Shown one piece after another: positions 3,763 to 44,980 of a stretch of 64,000 nucleotides of DNA. How positions within the stretch are numbered: position 1 is the first letter of the stretch; every line of letters starts with the position of its first letter. The translations under genes were made by a program, and so were the position numbers. The DNA lies in assembly GCF_046105845.1 (NCBI RefSeq), contig NZ_CP151004.1, one strand, 5' to 3'. Under the pieces are notes generated by a model that worked only from the letters and a program-made list of their open reading frames with translations, had not been told where the DNA came from and made no database searches. This DNA comes from Escherichia coli. GTDB lineage: Bacteria > Pseudomonadota > Gammaproteobacteria > Enterobacterales > Enterobacteriaceae.

Positions 3763-5011
3763 TGTTAGCCTCCACATGCGTCATTGCTGCTGTCGTTTTG
3801 CGATTCAAAATCGGGTTAAGGATCAGATAGCTCAGCGCGCCACCTAATACCGCGTTGACCGGAACAATACCCGGTAACCAGTGGCCTGCGGCAATCCCCA
3901 GCGCGACCGCCAGAATCGCCACCCAATTGACACTCATCATACGCGTGGTCGCAAAGTGCTCATAGCGGCGACGGTTCATCAGATAGTCAGCGATGATCAC
4001 GCCCCCTACCGGAGGAATAGCTGCCGAAAGGAAGGTCAGCCAGCCGACAAAATTGTTATACAGCCATAATGCGCAGACCGTACCGATAATACCGTTGATT
4101 ACCGAAAGGGTTTTGCTCGACATACCAGTAATGTTGGCGAAACCTAAGCCCGACGCATAGAGCGCGTTATCGTTGGTGGTCCAGATATTCAGCCCCAGCA
4201 CCACAATCGCAGGCAGCAGCAGACCCTGAGCAATCATCACATCAGAGATATCCGCCATCCCCAGTGCCGCCGCGCCCGCTGCACCGAAAATAAACATCAA
4301 CGAGTTGCCGAGGAAAAAGGCCACCATCGCCACCAGCACCGCCAGTTTGGCATTACGACCAAACCGGACAAAGTCAGCGGTGAGCGTGCCCGCACTGATA
4401 AATGACCCCACAACCAGCGCCAGCGCGACATTGAAATCTAACGGTTGTGCGGGAACGACCGCTTTTAATGCGTCCAGGCCGCCCATGCCGTTAACGGCCA
4501 ACCACACGGAATAACCGCCAAGACAGGCGATAGCCGGAACTGCAATCACCGAAAGAACCATCAGCGCCGAAATGCCAAAGAAGACGGTGACGGTCATCAG
4601 TAAACCGGAGACGGCAATCAGCAAATTAATATCCAGCCCGGTTGCCTTGCCCACCGGAATGGCAAACATCGCCACGCCAACGCCAAACCAGCCAACCTGG
4701 GTGCCGCCCAGCAGCAGTGAAGGCAGCCATGAGCCTTTAACACCAAAAGAGAAGCGAGCAAGAAGATGAGTGGTCAGGCCGGTTTTTGCGCCAATGTAAC
4801 CAAGAAATGAAGTGTAAATACCGAGGAGAAGATTACCGATGAGGACTGCGAGGAAGAAATCATGATAGCTAAGACCGGTTCCGAGAGTGCCGCCGGTCCA
4901 CATACTGGCGGAAAAGAAGGTTAATCCCAGCATGACGAACGTCAATGCCAATACCCCTTTCCGCGCCGACTGCGGGACTGGCCCTTGGCTAAAGTTGTTA
5001 TCTTGCGACAC
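3752..5011 (-). CDS. codB: Cytosine permease (NCS1 family)
   Basis: 419 aa polytopic membrane protein with GTG start, overlapping the codA start by 11 bp; recognised as CodB. Confidence 0.93.
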
Positions 5012-5077
5012 GAAATTCCCCCTTTTTGCTGTCTGAAACCCAAAAAATCCGCCGCATTCTATTCATCTGAAGATAAA

Positions 5078-5093
5078 AAGCAATCGTTTTCGT
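5078..5093 (-). promoter_or_regulatory. PurR-box-like operator upstream of codBA
   Basis: AAGCAATCGTTTTCGT resembles the PurR consensus (GCAAACGTTTNCGT-like palindrome), about 70-80 bp upstream of the codB start; codBA is known to be purine-repressed. Confidence 0.4.
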
Positions 5094-5177
5094 AGGGAAA
5101 TATATTTTTTATATGAATGAGTGCAAAAAGGTGGGGGAAAAATTATCGGTGTAAAAACAGTGGGTAGCCATAATAAG

Positions 5178-5245
5178 ACGCGGTAAGCGTCGCATCAGGC
5201 ATCGGCGCATGGTGTCGGATGCGCCAGGCGACGCATCCGACAATA
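5178..5245. repeat. REP-type palindromic units (BIME-like) between prpE 3' end and the codB promoter
   Basis: Two GC-rich imperfect palindromes: GACGCGGTAAGCGTCGCATCAGGCAT and GTCGGATGCG-CCAGGC-GACGCATCCGAC; these resemble E. coli REP consensus sequences. Confidence 0.5.
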
Positions 5246-5247
5246 AC

Positions 5248-7134
5248 CTACTCTTCCATCGCCTGGCGGATCTGATCCAACGACGCAGGATCATCAATGG
5301 TCGTCAGATCCCCAGGATCGCGTCCTTCACAAATCGCCTGGATCGTGCGGCGCAGCATTTTTCCGGATCGCGTTTTCGGCAATTGCGAGACAAACCAGAC
5401 GTGCGCCGGGCGACCAAAGTTGCCAATCTGGCTGTCCACCAGCGCCATAATCGCCTTCTCTTGCGAATGCGCCACCTCGCGGTCTTCCAGACTGTCGCTC
5501 TCTTTCGGAATGACAAACGCCACCGCCACCTGCCCTTTCAGCGCATCTTTCACCCCAACCACCGCCACTTCGGCAACGCCCGGATGACTGGAGATACTCT
5601 CTTCAATCTCGCGCGTCCCCAGCCGATGCCCGGCAACGTTAATCACATCGTCAGTGCGCCCGAGAATAAAGTGATAACCGTCAGCATCGCGGATACCCCA
5701 GTCAAAAGTGGCGTACACCGGACGGGAAAACAGCGACCAGTACGTCTTCACAAAGCGGTCGTCGTCGCCCCAGATGGTCTGAATACAGCCCGGCGGCAGC
5801 GGCCCTTCTACCACCAGCATCCCTTTCTCGTTGACGCCACACGGTTCGCCGGTGACTTCATTAAGCAACTGCACGTTATAGCCATACATCGGCACGCCGG
5901 GGCTTCCCAGACGCGTCGGCCTGTCGTCCAGACCGCGAGCAATCGCCATAATCGGCCAGCCGGATTCGGTCTGCCAGTAGTTGTCGATGACCGGCACATC
6001 CAGCGTATTGCTCACCCAACTGGCGGTCGGCTCGTCCAGCGGTTCTCCAGCCAGATAGAGCACTTCCAGCGACGAGAGATCGTGTTTGCGAATTTCAGCG
6101 GTAGGGAATTTTTTCAGCACGCGTATGGCGGTCGGCGCTGAGAACATGCGGCTAACCTGATATTTCTCGACGATTTTCCACCACACGCCGCAGTCCGGCC
6201 AGGTCGGTAATCCTTCGTAAACGATAGTCGCCATCCCCGCCAGCAGCGGCGCGTAGACGATATACGAATGCCCCACCACCCAGCCGATATCCGAAGCACA
6301 AAAGAACACACCGCCCGCTTTGCCGCCAAAAATGGTGTCCATCGAGGTCGCCAGCGCCACCGCATATCCGCCGACGTCACGCTGCACGCCTTTAGGTTTG
6401 CCGGTCGTGCCGGAAGTGTAGAGAATGCAGGAGGTTTCGTTGGATTCCAGCCACGCCACTGGCACCCGCGCGCCGATGTGTTGATGGCGCAACGACGCGA
6501 AATCGACATCCCGCCCGCTGACGCGCGCCATTTTCGCCAGCCCGCGATCCACCAGTAAAACGTGGCGCGGCTGATGCTGCGCCTGACTTATCGCATCGTC
6601 GAGTAATTTTTTATAGGGAATGATTTTGCCACCGCGCGCTCCGGCATCAGCCGAGACAATCAGCACCGGTTTAGCGTCATCAATTCGCGCCGCCACGCTG
6701 TGCGAGGCAAATCCCCCAAACACCACCGAATGAATAGCGCCAATGCGCGCGCAGGCCAGCAGGGTAATATGCGCTTCGGCAATCATCGGCATATACACCA
6801 GCACCCGATCGCCACGCTGCACGCCCAATGAACGCAACATTGAGGCCACCGCGTTCACTTCGTCATGCAGCTGACGAAAGGTAAAGGTGCGCTCTTCTTC
6901 TGTTTCCGAAGAGACGGCAATCAGCGCCAGCGCCTCTGGCTGTTTCTCCAGCCAGCGGTCGATAGCGTTGTGGCACAAGTTGGTTCGGCCTTCACAAAAC
7001 CAACGGGCAAACGGCGGATTGCTGTGATCAAGCGTTTGCGTAAAGGGCGTCTGCCAGTCAATACGCCGGGCCTGCTCGGCCCAGAACTTCTCCGGTTCGT
7101 TAATCGAACGCTGATAAAATTCGCTAAAAGACAT
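5248..7134 (-). CDS. prpE: Propionyl-CoA synthetase
   Basis: 628 aa acyl-CoA synthetase (AMP-forming) with ATG start; last gene of prpBCDE. Confidence 0.95.
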   Translation of the reverse strand: MSFSEFYQRSINEPEKFWAEQARRIDWQTPFTQTLDHSNPPFARWFCEGRTNLCHNAIDRWLEKQPEALALIAVSSETEEERTFTFRQLHDEVNAVASMLRSLGVQRGDRVLVYMPMIAEAHITLLACARIGAIHSVVFGGFASHSVAARIDDAKPVLIVSADAGARGGKIIPYKKLLDDAISQAQHQPRHVLLVDRGLAKMARVSGRDVDFASLRHQHIGARVPVAWLESNETSCILYTSGTTGKPKGVQRDVGGYAVALATSMDTIFGGKAGGVFFCASDIGWVVGHSYIVYAPLLAGMATIVYEGLPTWPDCGVWWKIVEKYQVSRMFSAPTAIRVLKKFPTAEIRKHDLSSLEVLYLAGEPLDEPTASWVSNTLDVPVIDNYWQTESGWPIMAIARGLDDRPTRLGSPGVPMYGYNVQLLNEVTGEPCGVNEKGMLVVEGPLPPGCIQTIWGDDDRFVKTYWSLFSRPVYATFDWGIRDADGYHFILGRTDDVINVAGHRLGTREIEESISSHPGVAEVAVVGVKDALKGQVAVAFVIPKESDSLEDREVAHSQEKAIMALVDSQIGNFGRPAHVWFVSQLPKTRSGKMLRRTIQAICEGRDPGDLTTIDDPASLDQIRQAMEE

Positions 7135-36983: not shown

Positions 36984-38654
36984 TTGCAATTTGACTACAT
37001 CATTATTGGTGCCGGCTCAGCCGGCAACGTTCTCGCTACCCGTCTGACTGAAGATCCGAACACAACCGTGCTGCTGCTTGAAGCAGGCGGCCCGGACTAT
37101 CGCTTTGACTTTCGCACCCAGATGCCCGCCGCGCTGGCGTTCCCGTTACAGGGTAAACGCTATAACTGGGCCTATGAGACGGAACCGGAACCGTTTATGA
37201 ACAACCGTCGCATGGAGTGCGGACGCGGTAAAGGTCTGGGCGGATCGTCACTGATCAACGGCATGTGCTACATCCGTGGCAATGCGCTGGATCTCGATAA
37301 CTGGGCGCAAGAACCCGGTCTGGAGAACTGGAGCTACCTCGACTGCCTGCCCTACTACCGCAAGGCCGAGACGCGCGATGTGGGCGAGAACGACTACCAC
37401 GGCGGCGACGGCCCGGTGAGCGTCACCACCTCCAAACCCGGCGTCAATCCGCTGTTTGAAGCGATGATTGAAGCGGGCGTGCAGGCGGGCTACCCGCGCA
37501 CGGACGATCTCAACGGTTATCAGCAGGAAGGTTTTGGCCCGATGGATCGCACCGTCACGCCGCAGGGCCGTCGCGCCAGCACCGCGCGTGGCTATCTCGA
37601 TCAGGCCAAATCGCGCCCTAACCTGACCATTCGTACTCACGCCATGACCGATCACATCATTTTTGACGGCAAACGCGCGGTGGGCGTCGAGTGGCTGGAA
37701 GGCGACAGCACCATTCCGACCCGCGCGGCGGCGAATAAAGAAGTGCTGTTATGTGCAGGCGCGATTGCTTCACCGCAGATCCTGCAACGCTCCGGCGTCG
37801 GCAACGCTGGACTGCTGGCGGAGTTTGATATTCCGCTGGTGCATGAATTACCTGGCGTCGGCGAAAATCTTCAGGATCACCTGGAGATGTATCTGCAATA
37901 TGAGTGCAAAGAACCGGTTTCCCTCTACCCTGCCCTGCAGTGGTGGAATCAGCCGAAAATCGGTGCGGAGTGGCTGTTTGGCGGCACCGGCGTTGGTGCC
38001 AGCAACCACTTTGAAGCTGGCGGATTTATTCGCAGCCGTGAGGAATTTACGTGGCCGAATATTCAGTACCATTTCCTGCCAGTGGCGATTAACTATAACG
38101 GCTCGAACGCAGTGAAAGAGCACGGCTTCCAGTGCCACGTCGGATCGATGCGCTCGCCAAGCCGTGGGCATGTGCGGATTAAATCCCGCGACCCGCACCA
38201 GCATCCGGGAATTCTGTTTAACTACATGTCGCACGAGCAGGACTGGCAGGAGTTCCGCGACGCAATTCGCATCACCCGCGAGATCATGCATCAACCCGCG
38301 CTGGATCAATACCGTGGCCGCGAAATCAGCCCCGGCGCGGAATGTCAGACGGATGAGCAGCTCGATGAGTTCGTGCGTAACCACGCCGAAACCGCGTTTC
38401 ATCCGTGCGGTACCTGCAAAATGGGTTATGACGAGATGGCAGTGGTTGACGCCGAAGGCCGCGTACACGGGCTGGAAGGCCTGCGCGTGGTGGATGCGTC
38501 AATTATGCCGCAAATTATCACCGGCAATTTGAACGCTACGACTATTATGATTGGCGAGAAAATGGCGGATATGATTCGCGGGAAGGATGCGTTGCCGAGG
38601 AGCACGGCGGGATATTATGTGGCAAATGGGATGCCGGTGAGAGCGAAAAAATGA
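36984..38654 (+). CDS. betA: Choline dehydrogenase (GMC oxidoreductase)
   Basis: Recognised BetA N-terminus (M)[14 protein letters not shown] aligns with a TTG at 36984, preceded by AGGAGG at 36973-36978 with 5 nt spacing; gives 556 aa. The ORF track extends to another TTG at 36939. Confidence 0.88.
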
Positions 38655-39735
38655 GTCGTGATGTGAACTGACTCAGGAACCTATCAGATTGAGAGTTACC
38701 GTTCTACTATGAGGACCGAATCCTTATATAAAACACTGAGGTAACTCTCATGCTTCATCGTGACAATCTCGCCAGCAAATTCTAAGCTGACTTGCTCAAT
38801 CTGGCTAATGAAGGTGCTATGGATACACAGATAAACCACAGGTGAAATGCCACTCAGCTTAAGAATCACGCAGCTAGTGTTCCTGGCTATGGTTACTTGT
38901 TCACTCTCGCTCACGGTTAGCATATACGAAAACGGTTCTTGTAACGAGGACAAAAATAAGTCAGACCAAAACCACATGGAGCTTTAAACACGGCTCGTAT
39001 AATTTATTAGCAGCGATTTATTTTTACTCTTCTTTAATTAATCATCATGCTTAAATATTTTTTAGCACACGATTATCGCTTCACTAACATTTTAGTTTAC
39101 ATTGATTCCCAATTGACAATAAAAAATTGTTAATAAGTTTTTGCGAAAAATAAAAAGTGTTGAAATACTCTCCAGTAAACGAATGCAAAATAAACAAACT
39201 AAGGTTTACAAAAAACAAAAACTATTCAAAAGAATATTTTTAATTTATTAGCAGAGTCCATTAACAATGGTTTACTCACGAACAGAAAAGTAAAGAACAC
39301 CTTGCAATAATATGTATTTATAAATTCATATCATTGATATTAAACTAATCTTACTTTCTACCCTCCCAACTTCATACACCAAAAAAACAAAGTAAAATCA
39401 ATTATATACACAACAAGGCAATCTCAAAGGAAATAATATTAAATATCTCAAAACTAATAAAAATTACTAAGACATTAGACGTAACACACATCCCACACGC
39501 CCTGTAGCTCATAGCTTTTATATTTATTTTCTCACATCACTGTAGATAAAAACACGCATTAAAAATGACTTGTAGAAAAGCTGCACAATAAATAGTTCAT
39601 ATTTAGTCTGTTGCGTAGAACTACTATTCAAAAAATCTTATTAATGAGATAATGAGATTACATCGATAACGTTCTGATTGCAGGCATACTTATCTGGGTG
39701 TGCCTCTCTTTTTTTACAACTGTACACGGTGGCGT

Positions 39736-40299
39736 ATGACGAGAAAATATCTCACACAGGATGAAGTCTACAGGCTGATGGATGCAGCCCAGAGCATGTC
39801 CTTTCCTGAAAGAAATCGCTGTCTGATTATGATGGCTTTCATTCACGGTTTTAGGGCCAGTGAACTTCTTGATTTACGTTTATCCGATATTGATGCATCT
39901 GGAAAACAACTTAATATTCGGCGTATTAAAAATGGTTTCTCGACAACACATCCTCTTCTTCCTGATGAATATAATTTGATCAAGTTGTGGCTTAAGCAGA
40001 GGAAGTTAATTGAAAACGGAGTTGAAGGAGACTGGCTTTTTCTCTCCCGGAAACGCCGCCCTATCAGCAGACAACATTTTTTTTCTATCATTCGTGAGGC
40101 TGGAAAACGTGCAGGATTAGCTGTAAAAGCACATCCTCATATGTTACGTCATGCCTGTGGTTTTGCTCTGGCTGACAATGGTGTCGATACCCGACTACTT
40201 CAGGATTATCTGGGTCATCGAAATATTCAGCATACTGTCAGATACACAGCCAGTAATGCTGCTCGTTTTAAAGGGGTGTGGAAAAAAAAGCCTCGTTAA
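39736..40299 (+). CDS. Tyrosine site-specific recombinase, FimB/FimE-like
   Basis: ATG at 39736 gives about 187 aa MTRKYLTQDEVYRLMDAAQ...; C-terminal catalytic region HMLRHACGFALADNGVDTRLLQDYLGHRNIQHTVRYT contains the R-H-R-Y tyrosine-recombinase signature, and size and sequence resemble the fim-switch recombinases; gene is visibly AT-rich. Possibly the ipuA homolog (unverified). Confidence 0.85.
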   Translation: MTRKYLTQDEVYRLMDAAQSMSFPERNRCLIMMAFIHGFRASELLDLRLSDIDASGKQLNIRRIKNGFSTTHPLLPDEYNLIKLWLKQRKLIENGVEGDWLFLSRKRRPISRQHFFSIIREAGKRAGLAVKAHPHMLRHACGFALADNGVDTRLLQDYLGHRNIQHTVRYTASNAARFKGVWKKKPR

Positions 40300-40311
40300 A
40301 ACAGTACCTTC

Positions 40312-40327
40312 TGATTCAAAATGTCAG
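40312..40327. repeat. Left inverted repeat of candidate invertible element
   Basis: TGATTCAAAATGTCAG; exact reverse complement occurs at 40574-40589. Confidence 0.85.
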
Positions 40328-40573
40328 ATTCCTACGTTTTCCTCAATTCTTCCATAAAAAAACAGCCCATTCAATTAAATAAAACACATAACATGTTGAT
40401 ATTTCTAGCTAAAGTAAAATAACCCCATGATTTGAAATGATTAATCACAAAGGTCATACCAGTGATTAACTTTTGCTCATATTGTTAAATAGCACAAAAT
40501 TAAAAACAATAAAAATCAAACAAATTAGATTTATATTCCAAGAAAATTAAATATTCAGGCTATTAAACAAAAC

Positions 40574-40589
40574 CTGACATTTTGAATCA
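40574..40589. repeat. Right inverted repeat of candidate invertible element (inside a 31 bp perfect palindrome at 40571-40601)
   Basis: CTGACATTTTGAATCA; the surrounding AACCTGACATTTTG-A-ATCAAAATGTCAGGTT is a perfect palindrome, so this end carries the repeat in both orientations, like paired recombinase half-sites. Confidence 0.85.
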
Positions 40590-40628
40590 AAATGTCAGGT
40601 TTTGTAGCAATGGCGTGGACGAGTCTGA

Positions 40629-41423
40629 ATGAAGAAGCCTCTGGTTATTATCAGTGCCTGTCAGTTCACCAGGCTGGCACTGGAGTCTCTCATCCCAACG
40701 GACAGGTATCTCGTGCGGGTGTACAGCAACGTCACTACAGAGGTTGAATTCATTTTAAAGACCTCCTGTGGCTACCTGTTAGCTGATATCCCTTCGCTTC
40801 CTTCGGGGGAGTTGGTTCTTCTGGCTTGTCTTGTCCGCTTGCGGAGTGATGCCGGGCAATGGCAGGTCTGCCTGACCGGTGACTCCGACTGGTTCGATAA
40901 TGCTCCTGCTGCAAGTCTGTATAACGGCTTCCCACGCATCGGCACCATGCTGACAGCGAGTCGTTATCAGAATCAAATTATCCGCTGGTTACTACGTCCT
41001 TTGCCCGGCGATATGAGTGATTTCTGGCTCCTGACTGCACGGGAGTTGAGCGTGCTTAAGATTCTGATGCAGGGCATGAGTTTCAGTGAGATTGCCCGTT
41101 ATGAACAACGCAGTTCAAAGACCCTGCATGCGATTGCCACACGGGCATTAATGAAACTTGGACTGGGAACTCTGAGCGATTTCAGGCTGCTCTATACGGG
41201 ATGCGGTGACAGCAGAGTGAAACGGAATATACGGCTACATGCAAGATATGTCGGACAACATTCCGCTCATCGACTCACTCAGTATATGCAGAACATGGTA
41301 TCCGGAATTCTTTATCCAGAGAAAGTTGTCGTTGGTGAATCAATAAATTCTGACGCCATATCCGGAAAAGTACTTTCCGGACAAAGAAAAAATATGTCTA
41401 AAAAAAGACCAGGATTGTTATGA
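40629..41423 (+). CDS. LuxR-family transcriptional regulator (C-terminal HTH)
   Basis: 264 aa ORF with ATG start; LuxR-type HTH LTARELSVLKILMQGMSFSEIARYEQRSSKTLHAIATRALMKLGL, closely similar to the HTH of PdeL in this window; no recognisable receiver domain. Confidence 0.8.
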   Translation: MKKPLVIISACQFTRLALESLIPTDRYLVRVYSNVTTEVEFILKTSCGYLLADIPSLPSGELVLLACLVRLRSDAGQWQVCLTGDSDWFDNAPAASLYNGFPRIGTMLTASRYQNQIIRWLLRPLPGDMSDFWLLTARELSVLKILMQGMSFSEIARYEQRSSKTLHAIATRALMKLGLGTLSDFRLLYTGCGDSRVKRNIRLHARYVGQHSAHRLTQYMQNMVSGILYPEKVVVGESINSDAISGKVLSGQRKNMSKKRPGLL

Positions 41424-41522
41424 CACAGCAGCGTTGTTACTACCCCCCACTGCGGCGCATACGGACTCGCTACAGTGTAGGAGCCAAAATATTTCTACTG
41501 CTCTGGGCTGCAGGATTGGGAG

Positions 41523-42338: not shown

Positions 42339-42379
42339 GTGGGAAATTGAAATTAGTTACCAGAATGGAGAATTTCTTC

Positions 42380-44980
42380 ATGAAAAACAGTAAGGCATTT
42401 TACCGCAGCGCATTAGCAACAGCTATTGTTATGGCTCTTTCTGCCCCAGCATTCGCTGCTGATAACGCGGTATCAACTACACCGGTTACATTGGATAAAG
42501 ATAAGACAACTCTGGATCAAGATGTTGTTATTAACGGTGATAACAAGATTACAGCCGTAACAATTGAGACGTCAGATTCAGATAAAGACCTTAATGTTAC
42601 TTTTGGCGGTCACGATATTACCGCCGCATCAACGGTAAACCAAGATTTCGTTGAAGGTGTAAAAGTTAGCGGTGACAAAAATGTTGTGATTAATGCTACA
42701 GGCTCCACCATCACAGCTCAAGGTGAAGGCACCTATGTCCGGACTGCAATGGTCATTTCTTCAACAGGCGATGTTGTTGTTAATGGCGGTAACTTTGTTG
42801 CAAAAAATGAAAAAGGTAGTGCGACAGGGATATCTCTGGAAGGGACCAAAGGAAATAATGTAACGCTCAATGGCACAACCATAAATGCTCAAGGTAAAAA
42901 TGATTCGAGCAACAGCTCTACGGCAATTTTTGCTCAAAAGGGTAGCGTATTGGATGGGCATGGCTTTAGCGGTGATGCAACCGACAACATTACCCTTGCT
43001 GGCTCAAATATTATTAATGGCCGGATTGAAACAATACTTATTGCTCAGGAGAATACGGGAACTCATACAGTCAACCTGAATATTAAGGATGGCTCAGTAA
43101 TTGGGGCGGCTAATAATAAACAAACAATTTATGCCTCTGCTTCGGCACAAGGAGCAGGTTCAGCAACGCAAAATTTAAATTTATCTGTCGCCGATTCAAC
43201 CATCTACTCTGATATCCGTGCCCTTTCTGCAAGCGAGAATTCAGCCGGTACCACAACAAATGTAAACATGAACGTTGCCCGCTCTTACTGGGAAGGTAAT
43301 GCTTATGCTTATGCTTATGCTTATGCTTATGCTGATGACGATAAAGCGAGTAGTAATCTGAATATAAATCTTTCCGATGGCTCAGTCTGGAAAGGAAATG
43401 TTGCGGGTAATACGACTACTGGCAGCACCGGTACTACAGAAAACCAGTCAGCAACCGTAAGTCTGTCTGATTCCACCTGGAAAGGTAACGTGGGTGACGG
43501 TCTGGATGGTGGTGCGCGAGTCACGCTGAAAAACTCCAGCTGGACTGGTGATGTCAGCAACGCCAAAACGGCTGTTGTTCTGACGGATGGTTCTGTGTGG
43601 AATGGTGCCATTAACAGCAATCCTGTTGCAGGAAGTCATGCAGTGGCTGCTGCCGGCAGCACTGATGCAGGTACTTTGACTCCATCTACGTTAGCCGGTC
43701 AGACAGTTGCACTTGCCGGCTCCACCTGGAATGTTACCGGTGATTCTTCTGTTCTTGGCGTCACTGCTGTAAACAGCACCATCAGTGTGAAAGATGCCTC
43801 CCTGACAACTCAGGTTCTTTCTGCAAAAGACAGCAATCTTGTTGTTGATGCAGGTACAACCAATGCTCTGAATGTCACAGGGAAAGCTACCGGTAATGTG
43901 ACAGTTTATAACGCTGGTACCGTAGACTTGAAAGATGCAAAAACAGCATTCATTACTGTTGGTGAAGGCAGTGACCTGAAAGCCACAGGCACAACGGAAG
44001 GTGGTCTGTATCAATATGACCTGACACAGGGAGCTGATGGTAACTTTTATTTCGTAAAAAACACGCATAAAGCATCCAACGCCAGCTCCGTGATTCAGGC
44101 AATGGCAGCTGCTCCGGCTAACGTCGCTAATCTGCAGGCTGACACGCTCTCCGCCCGTCAGGATGCTGTCCGTCTGAGCGAAAATGACGAGGGTGGCGTA
44201 TGGATTCAGTACTTTGGCGGTAAACAGAAACATACCACCGCAGGAAATGCATCCTATGACCTGGATGTAAACGGTGTAATGCTGGGTGGTGATACCCGCT
44301 TCATGACTGAAGATGGTAGCTGGCTGGCCGGTGTGGCGATGTCTTCTGCGAAAGGTGACATGACTACCATGCAGAGCAAAGGTGACACAGAAGGTTACAG
44401 CTTCCACGCTTACCTGAGCCGCCAGTATAACAACGGTATCTTCATTGATACTGCTGCACAGTTTGGTCACTACAGCAACACGGCAGATGTTCGCCTGATG
44501 AATGGTGGCGGTACCATCAAAGCTGACTTTAACACCAATGGTTTCGGTGCGATGGTTAAAGGCGGTTACACATGGAAAGACGGTAATGGCCTGTTTATTC
44601 AGCCATATGCCAAACTGTCTGCGCTGACGCTGGAAGGTGTGGATTATCAACTCAACGGCGTGGACGTTCATTCTGACAGCTATAACTCTGTGCTGGGTGA
44701 GGCCGGTACGCGCGTGGGTTATGACTTCGCTGTGGGCAACGCGACCGTTAAACCTTATCTGAATCTGGCCGCACTGAACGAATTCTCTGATGGCAACAAA
44801 GTCCGTCTGGGTGATGAGTCTGTCAATACCAGCATTGACGGTGCAGCATTCCGCGTGGGTGCAGGTGTACAGGCTGATATCACCAAAAACATGGGAGCAT
44901 ATGCTAGCCTTGACTACACCAAAGGTGACGACATTGAGAACCCGCTACAGGGTGTAGTTGGTATCAATGTGACCTGGTAA
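42380..44980 (+). CDS. Autotransporter (type Va) adhesin-like protein
   Basis: ATG at 42380 preceded by GGAG; N-terminal signal peptide MKNSKAFYRSALATAIVMALSAPAFA; passenger with repeated S-x-W-x-G-N/D motifs; C-terminal beta-barrel translocator ending ...GVVGINVTW. Track start 42347 is a TTG. Possibly the upaE homolog (unverified). Confidence 0.85.
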   Translation: MKNSKAFYRSALATAIVMALSAPAFAADNAVSTTPVTLDKDKTTLDQDVVINGDNKITAVTIETSDSDKDLNVTFGGHDITAASTVNQDFVEGVKVSGDKNVVINATGSTITAQGEGTYVRTAMVISSTGDVVVNGGNFVAKNEKGSATGISLEGTKGNNVTLNGTTINAQGKNDSSNSSTAIFAQKGSVLDGHGFSGDATDNITLAGSNIINGRIETILIAQENTGTHTVNLNIKDGSVIGAANNKQTIYASASAQGAGSATQNLNLSVADSTIYSDIRALSASENSAGTTTNVNMNVARSYWEGNAYAYAYAYAYADDDKASSNLNINLSDGSVWKGNVAGNTTTGSTGTTENQSATVSLSDSTWKGNVGDGLDGGARVTLKNSSWTGDVSNAKTAVVLTDGSVWNGAINSNPVAGSHAVAAAGSTDAGTLTPSTLAGQTVALAGSTWNVTGDSSVLGVTAVNSTISVKDASLTTQVLSAKDSNLVVDAGTTNALNVTGKATGNVTVYNAGTVDLKDAKTAFITVGEGSDLKATGTTEGGLYQYDLTQGADGNFYFVKNTHKASNASSVIQAMAAAPANVANLQADTLSARQDAVRLSENDEGGVWIQYFGGKQKHTTAGNASYDLDVNGVMLGGDTRFMTEDGSWLAGVAMSSAKGDMTTMQSKGDTEGYSFHAYLSRQYNNGIFIDTAAQFGHYSNTADVRLMNGGGTIKADFNTNGFGAMVKGGYTWKDGNGLFIQPYAKLSALTLEGVDYQLNGVDVHSDSYNSVLGEAGTRVGYDFAVGNATVKPYLNLAALNEFSDGNKVRLGDESVNTSIDGAAFRVGAGVQADITKNMGAYASLDYTKGDDIENPLQGVVGINVTW
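43301..43330 (+). repeat. Tandem hexanucleotide repeat (GCTTAT)x5 inside the autotransporter gene, encoding (Ala-Tyr)5
   Basis: Five perfect GCTTAT units followed by a degenerate GCTGAT; translated as NAYAYAYAYAYADDD in the passenger domain. Confidence 0.9.

Follow-up and report, generated by a model that had tools for sequence, protein, structure and literature searches.

In Escherichia coli K-12, the recombinase gene fimB is controlled by NanR, NagC and IHF from far upstream, at known sites lying roughly at distances of the order of −580 to −780. The nanC-fimB region that carries this control is a long (1,455 bp), AT-rich (36% GC) stretch of non-coding DNA. The fimB-fimE region is also AT-rich (477 bp, 27% GC) and has a terminator-like hairpin with a T-run 86-115 nt before fimE (L012 3423-3452). 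Another Fim-family recombinase is encoded by the fimX/ipbA/hbiF gene of PAI-X, an island that lies between betA and ykgH and also carries hyxR, hyxA and hyxB (Bateman & Seed 2012; Bateman et al. 2013, as relayed in PMC6458436 and PMC8777976). FimX/IpbA/HbiF is enriched in uropathogenic E. coli, and when FimX was over-expressed in UTI89 and CFT073 and inversions were mapped across the whole genome, only fimS and hyxS, plus ipuS in CFT073, were found to invert (PMC6458436). Since FimX flips the switches of both type 1 pili and hyxR, the amount of recombinase should influence switching frequency. As far as these two sources relay it, the PAI-X literature is concerned with the recombinase and the hyxS switch, not with the 1.08 kb upstream of the gene. 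Full-text literature searches, the primary fimX and PAI-X papers being outside their scope, yielded no data on a fimX promoter, transcription start site or H-NS binding. We found no earlier description of a leader control region in the accessible literature; PAI-X itself was already known.

The interval analysed here belongs to a 64-kb stretch of E. coli DNA, hereafter the window. The locus is the known PAI-X island, inserted between betA and ykgH, with the same insertion site and gene order as in the literature. Related loci in RefSeq read betT-betIBA, then ipbA(HbiF/FimX)-hyxR-hyxA-hyxB, then ykgH, and the same order is annotated in a locus 99.8% identical to ours (L001). The recombinase coding sequence shows no difference from the Nissle gene, which carries the annotation 'tyrosine-type DNA invertase IpbA; also known as HbiF and FimX' (WP_001295805.1), and the hyxS inverted repeats are found at 40298-40330 and 40571-40603. 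A reading made beforehand from the letters of the window, here called the sequence-only reading, had taken the interval to lie upstream of a gene for a Fim-family recombinase; this was correct, the gene being ipbA/hbiF/fimX (hereafter fimX).

The same reading had likened the interval to the extended regulatory regions of fimB and fimE, which turned out to be an analogy only. A blastn search (word size 7) of the leader against the K-12 nanC-fimB and fimB-fimE regions returned short AT-rich matches, the best with E = 0.27. The NanR motif GGTATA, the IHF consensus WATCAANNNNTTR and GATC each occurred zero times in 38759-39735, and no CRP or FNR consensus site was found in the leader by motif scan. 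Conservation was confined to ~180 bp, with a hypervariable middle, and the fimX hairpin described below is only ~30 nt from the ATG, unlike that before fimE.

Limits and composition of the interval

The betA open reading frame ends at 38654 and the recombinase gene starts with the ATG at 39736-39738, leaving a gap of 1,081 bp (38655-39735). Both the coordinates and the non-coding status proposed for this gap were borne out, and the interval holds no conserved protein-coding gene. RefSeq leaves the spacer empty in most strains; the one feature annotated there, in some O157-type alleles, is a 'hypothetical protein' of 44 aa, which other strains lack or carry with a frameshift. Rfam covariance models run on both strands of 37500-41500 gave zero matches at E ≤ 1. 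The GC content is 33.2% for the whole interval and 28% for 38991-39700 (710 bp), against 49.8% for the window. The interval divides into four parts, the last of which (~180 bp) alone resembles a dedicated control region. Coordinates are given in Table 1.

Table 1. Features of the betA-fimX interval, in window coordinates
Feature	Position	Strand	Characteristics
Core E. coli 3′ flank of betA, outside the island	38655-38758	+	kept in island-free genomes
Inverted repeat	38690-38700 / 38740-38750		arms TGAGAGTTACC / GGTAACTCTCA, 11/11 complementary, 39 nt between arms
Long stem-loop with the inverted repeat as outer arms	~38686-38754	+	−26.2 kcal/mol, z = −3.84
PAI-X left end, decayed segment	38759-38990	none	43.5% GC
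Distal AT-rich block	38991-39154	none	25.6% GC; diversity roughly neutral-level
Hypervariable AT-rich core	39155-39554	+	27.5% GC; C-rich and G-poor on the + strand
Conserved proximal block (putative fimX promoter, operator and 5′ UTR)	39555-39735	+	
Best sigma-70 promoter candidate, TATTCA-17-GATAAT	39625-39653	+	extended −10 TGAGATAAT at 39645-39653
22-bp imperfect palindrome	39636-39657		TCTTATTA-N6-TAATGAGA; overlaps the −10 box, operator-like
Terminator-like element	39682-39715	+	10-bp stem and 4-nt loop (39682-39705), CTC, T7 (39709-39715)
Ribosome-binding site GGTGG and ATG	39728-39732 and 39736-39738	+	ipbA/hbiF/fimX CDS 39736-40299

Comparison with island-free strains placed the island junction between 38758 and 38759, and the right junction of PAI-X just before the ykgH upstream region. 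In strains free of the island the two flanks are joined directly, with ...CATGCTTCAT running into the ykgH upstream region. The first 104 bp of the interval are therefore core E. coli DNA, present in 4,906 of 5,426 complete E. coli genomes, island-free ones included, and the remaining 977 bp are the left end of PAI-X; the full spacer is present in 1,879 genomes. This bears on the 10-bp inverted repeat that the sequence-only reading had placed in the leader, at about 38690-38750. The repeat is real, and in fact 11 bp long, but it sits in core DNA after betA and is thus excluded from the recombinase leader. Its arms were identical in every allele aligned, and 3.6% of dinucleotide-shuffled versions of the interval contained a perfect inverted repeat of 11 bp whose loop was at most 60 nt. 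No U-tract follows the stem of the long stem-loop, for which a role at the 3′ end of the bet operon is purely conjectural.

A 93-aa frame on the minus strand (38696-38977) lies mostly within the decayed segment. It had been noticed as an AT-rich frame and dismissed as a gene; the frame exists, but it lies in the least AT-rich part of the interval (42.6% GC), and its dismissal was upheld by codon-position, allele and homology tests. Several allele classes keep it open, and it has been predicted by gene callers in many assemblies. Nevertheless, it straddles the junction between island and core, its variable columns are spread evenly over the three codon positions (15:20:21) with no codon-position bias, its start codon is gone in O157-type alleles, and three in-frame stops break it in the long allele (MDR_56/E166). 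It is restricted to alleles with a 96-nt deletion, located between 38920 and 38921 relative to the long allele, in which CGGTTA direct repeats are found on both sides of the extra 96 nt. Pfam and NCBIfam searches with the frame and its variants gave nothing above the curated cut-offs (best Pfam match E = 0.099, 13.1 bits against a cut-off of 27). A search of 5.8 billion proteins returned E. coli-named or unnamed matches only, at 70-99% identity and with lengths of 57-150 aa. With neither a domain nor homologues outside its own locus, this frame is most improbable as a real small protein gene.

The AT-rich spacer

Outside its last ~180 bp, the spacer is decaying, fast-evolving AT-rich DNA. The distal block has a mean pairwise difference of 0.04-0.10; perfect TATAAT (38998-39003) and TTGACA (39124-39129) hexamers occur there, neither with a good partner hexamer in promoter scans. 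The mean pairwise difference reaches 0.18-0.43 in the hypervariable core, whose allele in the window was at least 99% identical in 1 of 1,889 genomes only, 80-90% identical in 987 and 60-80% identical in 884. The fimX coding sequence, by contrast, was at least 99% identical in 1,411 of 1,897. Core divergence (14-34%) exceeded that of fimX third codon positions (0-13%) in every pair (p < 1e-7), a 2-4-fold excess over silent sites. These differences are real substitutions, as the ts:tv ratio is ~1.4. On the + strand the core has a C/G ratio of 2.1, locally up to 9, and every allele retains this excess of C over G.

AT-rich DNA gained by horizontal transfer is bound by H-NS, and transcripts that are untranslated, rich in C and poor in G are terminated by Rho. 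The leader is like a target of such xenogeneic silencing in being 26-28% GC within a 50% GC genome, untranslated, richer in C than in G on its sense strand and located at an island edge; A/T tracts of at least 4 are 2.5 times denser in it than in the whole window. It differs in that the high-affinity H-NS motif was not enriched (2 matches with at most 2 mismatches, against 2.8 expected) and its A-tracts are not phased, no 10-11-bp AA/TT periodicity being found in the leader. The nucleoid-protein sites suggested by the sequence-only reading are thus plausible on AT content but were supported by neither motif nor phasing, and the roles proposed below for H-NS and Rho are deduced from composition only.

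The conserved proximal block

When conserved blocks were sought across strains, one was found in the last ~180 bp, and none in the hypervariable central ~400 bp. The proximal block hardly varies among ~1,885 genomes or in another Escherichia species, with a mean pairwise difference of 0.01-0.065. The region 39440-39740 was at least 95% identical in 1,473 of 1,890 records, and the 79-81 nt covering both hairpin and ATG in 1,885 of 1,886. Sensitive blastn revealed no paralogous copy of the block in complete E. coli genomes. Relatives of FimX were found at one locus among 100,044 species genomes, in Escherichia sp. MOD1-EC7003, where the leader is 579 bp long; the out-group range of the comparisons is Escherichia only.

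The promoter candidate of Table 1 came from our own scoring scan and was not listed by a stricter consensus scan. All its bases are invariant in six alleles, as is the 22-bp palindrome, which would form an RNA hairpin if transcribed. The predicted transcription start is close to 39660, so that the 5′ UTR would be ~76 nt long. A search for a second palindrome copy, for instance near hyxR, returned only the self-match in the 64-kb window (0.36 expected by chance). Between the palindrome and the hairpin, an 11-nt match to the left flank of hyxS (ACGTTCTGATT, 39669-39679) was set aside as chance-level, tens being expected by estimate.

The hairpin of the terminator-like element has a folding energy of −12.9 kcal/mol (z = −3.89), and none of 200 shuffles was as stable. 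The reverse strand folds at just −7.4, because three of the pairs are G.U. A T>C change in two alleles converts a U.G pair of the hairpin into C-G. The length of the U-run is polymorphic, with exact matches to T6 in 376 records, T7 in 138 and T8 in 784, and the three lengths are fixed differently in different lineages. The hairpin stands ~20 nt before the ribosome-binding site. Its U6-8 run starts after a 3-nt CUC spacer; the element passed a simple terminator scan (0-2 nt offset allowed, 8-nt window), but the spacer weakens its reading as a canonical intrinsic terminator. Consensus RNA folding gave no two-sided covariation, as the block hardly varies, and no alternative antiterminator fold was present in single-sequence or consensus folds. 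The element is like known 5′-UTR intrinsic-terminator attenuators, which give rise to short RNAs when transcription stops early, in placing a stable, strand-specific hairpin and a U-run between the predicted start and the ribosome-binding site. It differs from attenuators by the 3 nt separating stem and U-run, and in having no identified antiterminator, leader peptide or ligand-binding domain.

Possible readings of the leader

The explanation that we favour, with a probability of roughly one half, is that of a compact promoter and a 5′ UTR with a terminator-like attenuator, placed behind a spacer subject to silencing of the H-NS/Rho type. fimX would be transcribed from the extended −10 candidate, and the palindrome overlapping it could be an operator. 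The resulting ~76-nt 5′ UTR would then have to be read through the strand-specific hairpin, CUC and U6-8. As the stretch from the U-run to the ATG is too short to hold a promoter, hairpin and U-run are most likely a leaky attenuator (an intrinsic terminator) and/or a stabilising 5′ hairpin, which would keep FimX low; transcripts stopped there would be ~55 nt long. Farther upstream, ~800 bp of decaying, untranslated DNA, 26-28% GC and with C in excess of G on the sense strand, most likely act non-specifically, through H-NS silencing and Rho-dependent termination, and would thereby shield fimX from transcription reading through from the bet operon. It is improbable that these ~800 bp hold a fimB-like series of sites for specific regulators. 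It had been suggested that the interval may hold promoters or a small RNA: a promoter is plausible and a short RNA or attenuator possible, but no Rfam family was matched. The likely fimX control region is narrowed from 1.1 kb to ~180 bp, with three elements named for mutation, the extended −10 promoter, the palindrome that overlaps it, and the hairpin followed by a U-run of variable length. This should be of use for the construction of fimX reporters; the kind of regulatory region is an ordinary one for bacteria.

The proximal block might instead be an independent small-RNA gene ending at the hairpin and U-run (39682-39715), with fimX expressed by read-through only. Some 180 nt of strongly conserved sequence ending in a strand-specific hairpin and U-run do have the look of such a gene, and the hairpin is too near the ATG for a downstream promoter. 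We consider this unlikely, given the missing Rfam family and covariation and the lack of a good promoter at the 5′ edge of the block; it also overlaps the attenuator model rather than excluding it. Another explanation, to which we give a similarly low credence, is that nothing beyond a minimal promoter is functional: the block would travel with fimX through recombination or sweeps, and the hairpin would be a terminator left over from an upstream gene since lost. The window and Nissle have identical fimX coding sequences, 180 of 181 identical positions in the block and a 14% difference just upstream, a mosaic typical of recombination, and the upstream DNA is visibly decaying. Moreover, in the MDR_56-type allele the block is no more conserved than silent sites (9/180 differences against 9/188 at fimX third positions), so that part of the block conservation could be hitch-hiking with the gene. 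What speaks against hitch-hiking as the whole explanation is that the sharp conservation boundary at ~39530-39555 is constant in every allele pair, including that between different Escherichia species. In MOD1-EC7003 the divergence of the block is 3.4 times lower than that of silent sites (7/180 differences against 25/188 fimX third positions, p = 0.0014), and the near-invariant stretch from hairpin to ATG adjoins hypervariable sequence.

Still more doubtful is the view of the sequence-only reading, that the whole 1.1 kb forms a fimB/fimE-like region integrating many specific regulators through distant sites. Beside the likeness in length and composition to the two K-12 regions, it can draw on 38955-39154, which varies less than the centre of the spacer and sits at ~−580 to −780, like the far-upstream fimB sites. 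Yet this stretch is not less variable than the core betA flank (0.04-0.10 against 0.035-0.107), as drift would give. The conservation of only ~180 bp next to ~400 hypervariable bp speaks against specific regulator sites being arrayed over 1.1 kb, as do the absence of similarity to either fim region, the lack of NanR, IHF, GATC, CRP or FNR sites and the position of the first 104 bp outside the island. A further Fim-type invertible switch within the leader is very improbable. Two inverted segments of 23 nt, 78% complementary to each other (39130-39152 / 39622-39644), do bracket the hypervariable core, but such a pair is expected by chance in AT-rich DNA, no core site of the hyxS type was found in the leader, and all eight alleles are colinear, with a single orientation observed. 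Over-expression of FimX inverted no new site in UTI89 or CFT073 (PMC6458436).

An extension of the attenuator model, which we hold to be about as doubtful as the fimB/fimE-like view, is that the attenuator is tunable: the length of the U-tract and the hypervariable silencer would set FimX levels by lineage, with the ~55-nt RNA acting in trans as an Hfq-type small RNA and the spacer under diversifying selection. If so, lineage-specific FimX levels would set the switching rates of fimS (type 1 pili) and hyxS (hyxR), and the divergence excess of 39155-39554 would reflect diversifying selection on regulation, not decay.

A small-RNA candidate at ykgH, known from RIL-seq, belongs to the ykgH 3′ UTR and not to the fimX leader. 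In strain FDAARGOS_1303, an IS3-family element is inserted at ~39594-39601; the last ~135 bp, with the promoter candidate and the hairpin, still adjoin the gene, and ipbA is still annotated as an intact CDS.

Extent and composition of the spacer

The ORF ending at 38654 is betA, with betT and betIBA further upstream; downstream of the recombinase ORF (187 codons, start at 39736) come two LuxR-type genes and one for an autotransporter. A locus from strain Res13-Lact-PER13-34 is 99.8% identical, and shares with the related loci of Nissle, O157:H7 86-24 and MDR_56 the annotated order betA / ipbA - hyxR - hyxA - hyxB / ykgH. In related loci ipbA is annotated as [quoted passage not shown], and the fimX coding sequence of the window is identical to that of Nissle at every base. 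The published island carrying fimX-hyxRAB is PAI-X (PMC6458436, PMC8777976), and the locus in the window is this island.

As the sequence-only reading had it, about 1.1 kb of AT-rich DNA precedes the recombinase gene: the spacer 38655-39735 measures 1,081 bp. Its GC content is 33%, falling to 28% within 38991-39700, where the window as a whole has 49.8%. Its first 104 bp are present in 4,906 of 5,426 complete E. coli genomes, and the whole spacer in about 1,880-1,890. In island-free strains ...GGTAACTCTCATGCTTCAT is joined straight to the sequence upstream of ykgH, which in the window resumes after hyxB. The island thus starts at 38759, and the spacer is a composite of core betA 3′ flank followed by island DNA. 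The inverted repeat reported near 38690-38750 is present, with 11 bp instead of 10, and lies in the core betA flank, outside the recombinase leader. Perfect 11-bp repeats whose loop is at most 60 nt turned up in 3.6% of shuffles, and the stem-loop has a fold z of −3.8. This flank has no annotated feature in K-12.

Features of the fimX leader, in window coordinates; differences are means over allele pairs
Feature	Position	Strand	Sequence or remark	Mean pairwise difference
Core flank	38655-38754			0.035-0.107
11-bp inverted repeat	38690-38700 / 38740-38750		TGAGAGTTACC / GGTAACTCTCA	
Decayed segment	38755-38954			0.067-0.141
Segment	38955-39079			0.04-0.06
Segment	39155-39529			0.18-0.43
Block adjoining fimX	39555 to ATG			0.01-0.065
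22-bp palindrome	39636-39657		TCTTATTA-N6-TAATGAGA, overlaps −10	
Candidate extended −10 promoter	39645-39653		TGAGATAAT, weak −35; best candidate in invariant block	
Hairpin	39682-39705	+	AGGCATACTT-ATCT-GGGTGTGCCT, then CTC, then T7 run (39709-39715)	
Ribosome-binding site	39728-39732		GGTGG	

Decay and variability upstream of the proximal block

A 93-aa minus-strand frame was rejected as a gene. It crosses the junction from island into core DNA, its variable columns show no codon-position bias (15:20:21), its ATG is absent from O157-type alleles, and the MDR_56/E166 allele has 96 extra bases with 3 in-frame stops. As previously noted it has no recognisable feature, no domain passing threshold in Pfam or NCBIfam, and its sole matches in a search of 5.8 billion proteins were E. 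coli-named or unnamed (70-99% identity, 57-150 aa). The remaining ORFs of the spacer are all of 46 aa or less and none is conserved, so the absence of a credible ORF was confirmed; an Rfam scan gave no match. The 96-nt indel, at window 38920/38921 in the decayed left island end (~4267-4362 of locus L006), is bounded at both ends, in the long allele, by CGGTTA direct repeats. These repeats suggest that the other lineages lost the segment by slipped mispairing; the shorter alleles are therefore deletion derivatives and the open frame a by-product of decay.

The alignment took in seven distinct alleles, namely six E. coli ones and that of Escherichia sp. MOD1-EC7003; no further species-level genome has a close FimX. 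Conserved blocks across strains were found from 39555 to the ATG, but 39155-39529 is hypervariable, and the boundary, at ~39530-39555, falls at the same place in all allele pairs. By BLAST identity bands, from which all population figures derive, the 39155-39554 allele of the window is at least 99% identical in 1 genome (n = 1,889), 80-90% in 987 and 60-80% in 884; for the fimX coding sequence, 1,411 genomes are at least 99% identical and 487 are 95-99%. The window thereby pairs a nearly unique mid-leader allele with the commonest fimX allele. Mid-leader divergence (14-34%) exceeds that of fimX third codon positions (0-13%) in 4 of 4 comparisons (p < 1e-7), and the transition excess, ~1.4:1 over transversions, argues against alignment noise. 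Possible causes are a recombination mosaic, diversifying selection or a raised mutation rate in silent AT-rich DNA.

The comparison with fimB and fimE stands only as far as a long AT-rich region before a Fim recombinase goes: the leader has no similarity to the K-12 nanC-fimB and fimB-fimE regions, and no NanR, IHF, GATC, CRP or FNR consensus site was found in its upstream part. There, the H-NS high-affinity motif is not enriched and A-tract phasing is absent; A/T tract density is 2.5 times that of the whole window. Over 39318-39551 the sense strand has a strong excess of C over G (C/G of 2.4-9 across 78-nt windows), a skew kept in all alleles despite sequence turnover (C/G 1.7-3.5). Untranslated, AT-rich acquired DNA with C>G is, as generally established, the expected substrate of Rho and H-NS.

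Candidate control elements next to fimX

The functional control region of fimX most probably occupies the final ~180 bp of the leader, to which the likely control elements are narrowed. For the Escherichia sp. allele, 7/180 positions differ in this proximal block and 25/188 among fimX third positions (p = 0.0014); for the MDR_56 allele the counts match (9/180 and 9/188). The block is thus under constraint on the longer timescale, though its near-identity within E. coli may partly stem from an ancestry that it shares with fimX.

From the candidate extended −10, absent from the list given by a stricter consensus promoter scan, transcription is predicted to start near 39660, with a 76-nt 5′ UTR. 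The palindrome has no second copy in the window. The promoter, start site and regulator of fimX are undescribed in the accessible literature, and the original fimX/hbiF/ipbA papers may map a promoter. In FDAARGOS_1303 (locus L009), an IS3-family element (4165-5492) lies in the leader at window ~39594-39601, ~135 bp upstream of the ATG; promoter candidate and hairpin, on its gene side, are still attached to fimX.

The hairpin RNA folds at −12.9 kcal/mol (z −3.9), against −7.4 for the reverse strand, with 3 G.U pairs that restrict it to the sense strand of fimX. The sole stem change among aligned alleles is a T>C in two of them, turning U.G into C-G. The stretch from hairpin to start codon (79-81 nt) is at least 95% identical in 1,885 of 1,886 records, T-run length being its main polymorphism (exact matches: T6 376, T7 138, T8 784); ~590 further carriers have other variants. 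O157:H7 86-24 (locus L002) keeps the leader, including the proximal block in T6 form, despite the annotation of its ipbA, hyxR, hyxB-like adhesin gene and ykgH as pseudogenes. As only ~20 nt separate T-run and ATG, no promoter fits downstream, and the fimX mRNA must be transcribed through the hairpin element. Single-sequence and consensus folds of the block gave no antiterminator alternative, and no two-sided covariation was seen among aligned alleles. In K-12 the fimE start codon is preceded, at 86-115 nt, by a terminator-like hairpin and T-run (3423-3452 of L012, the K-12 fim region), an arrangement resembling that of fimX with no sequence similarity to it.

Every role in the following scheme, whether of promoter, operator or attenuator or of H-NS and Rho, is inferred from sequence. 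Control of fimX would lie in a promoter that an operator-like palindrome overlaps, and its short 5′ UTR would bear a leaky terminator or a stabilising hairpin; the ~800 bp from the island edge would be a decaying spacer giving non-specific silencing and insulation. The feature is real but ordinary: both the gene and its island are known, and what lies upstream of the gene is apparently uncharacterised.

The hyxS switch and hyxB

No hyxS-type recombination core was found in the leader; whole-genome inversion mapping with over-expressed FimX had detected only the fimS, hyxS and, in CFT073, ipuS switches (PMC6458436). In hyxS (40298-40605), between fimX and hyxR, the right inverted repeat is a perfect 19+19-nt palindrome (40567-40605), so that the core TCAAAATGTCAG also recurs in direct orientation to the left repeat, at a distance of 271 bp. 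Precisely this 271-bp stretch is missing from E166 and FDAARGOS_1303, where the junction reads ...ACCTTCTGA|ATCAAAATGTCAGG (L008 3361-3418; L009 6200-6257). Among the 1,476 complete genomes with any match to a junction 80-mer, 88 cover at least 80% of it. The invertible promoter element appears to have been excised precisely and repeatedly, which, if true, would lock hyxR permanently.

The hyxB autotransporter ORF (42347-44980) encodes 877 aa from a TTG start and carries an (Ala-Tyr)n repeat, ...NAYAYAYAYAYADDD... As annotated, hyxB measures 2,601 nt in Res13-Lact-PER13-34 (L001) against 2,298 nt in Nissle, so the length of the passenger domain varies among strains.
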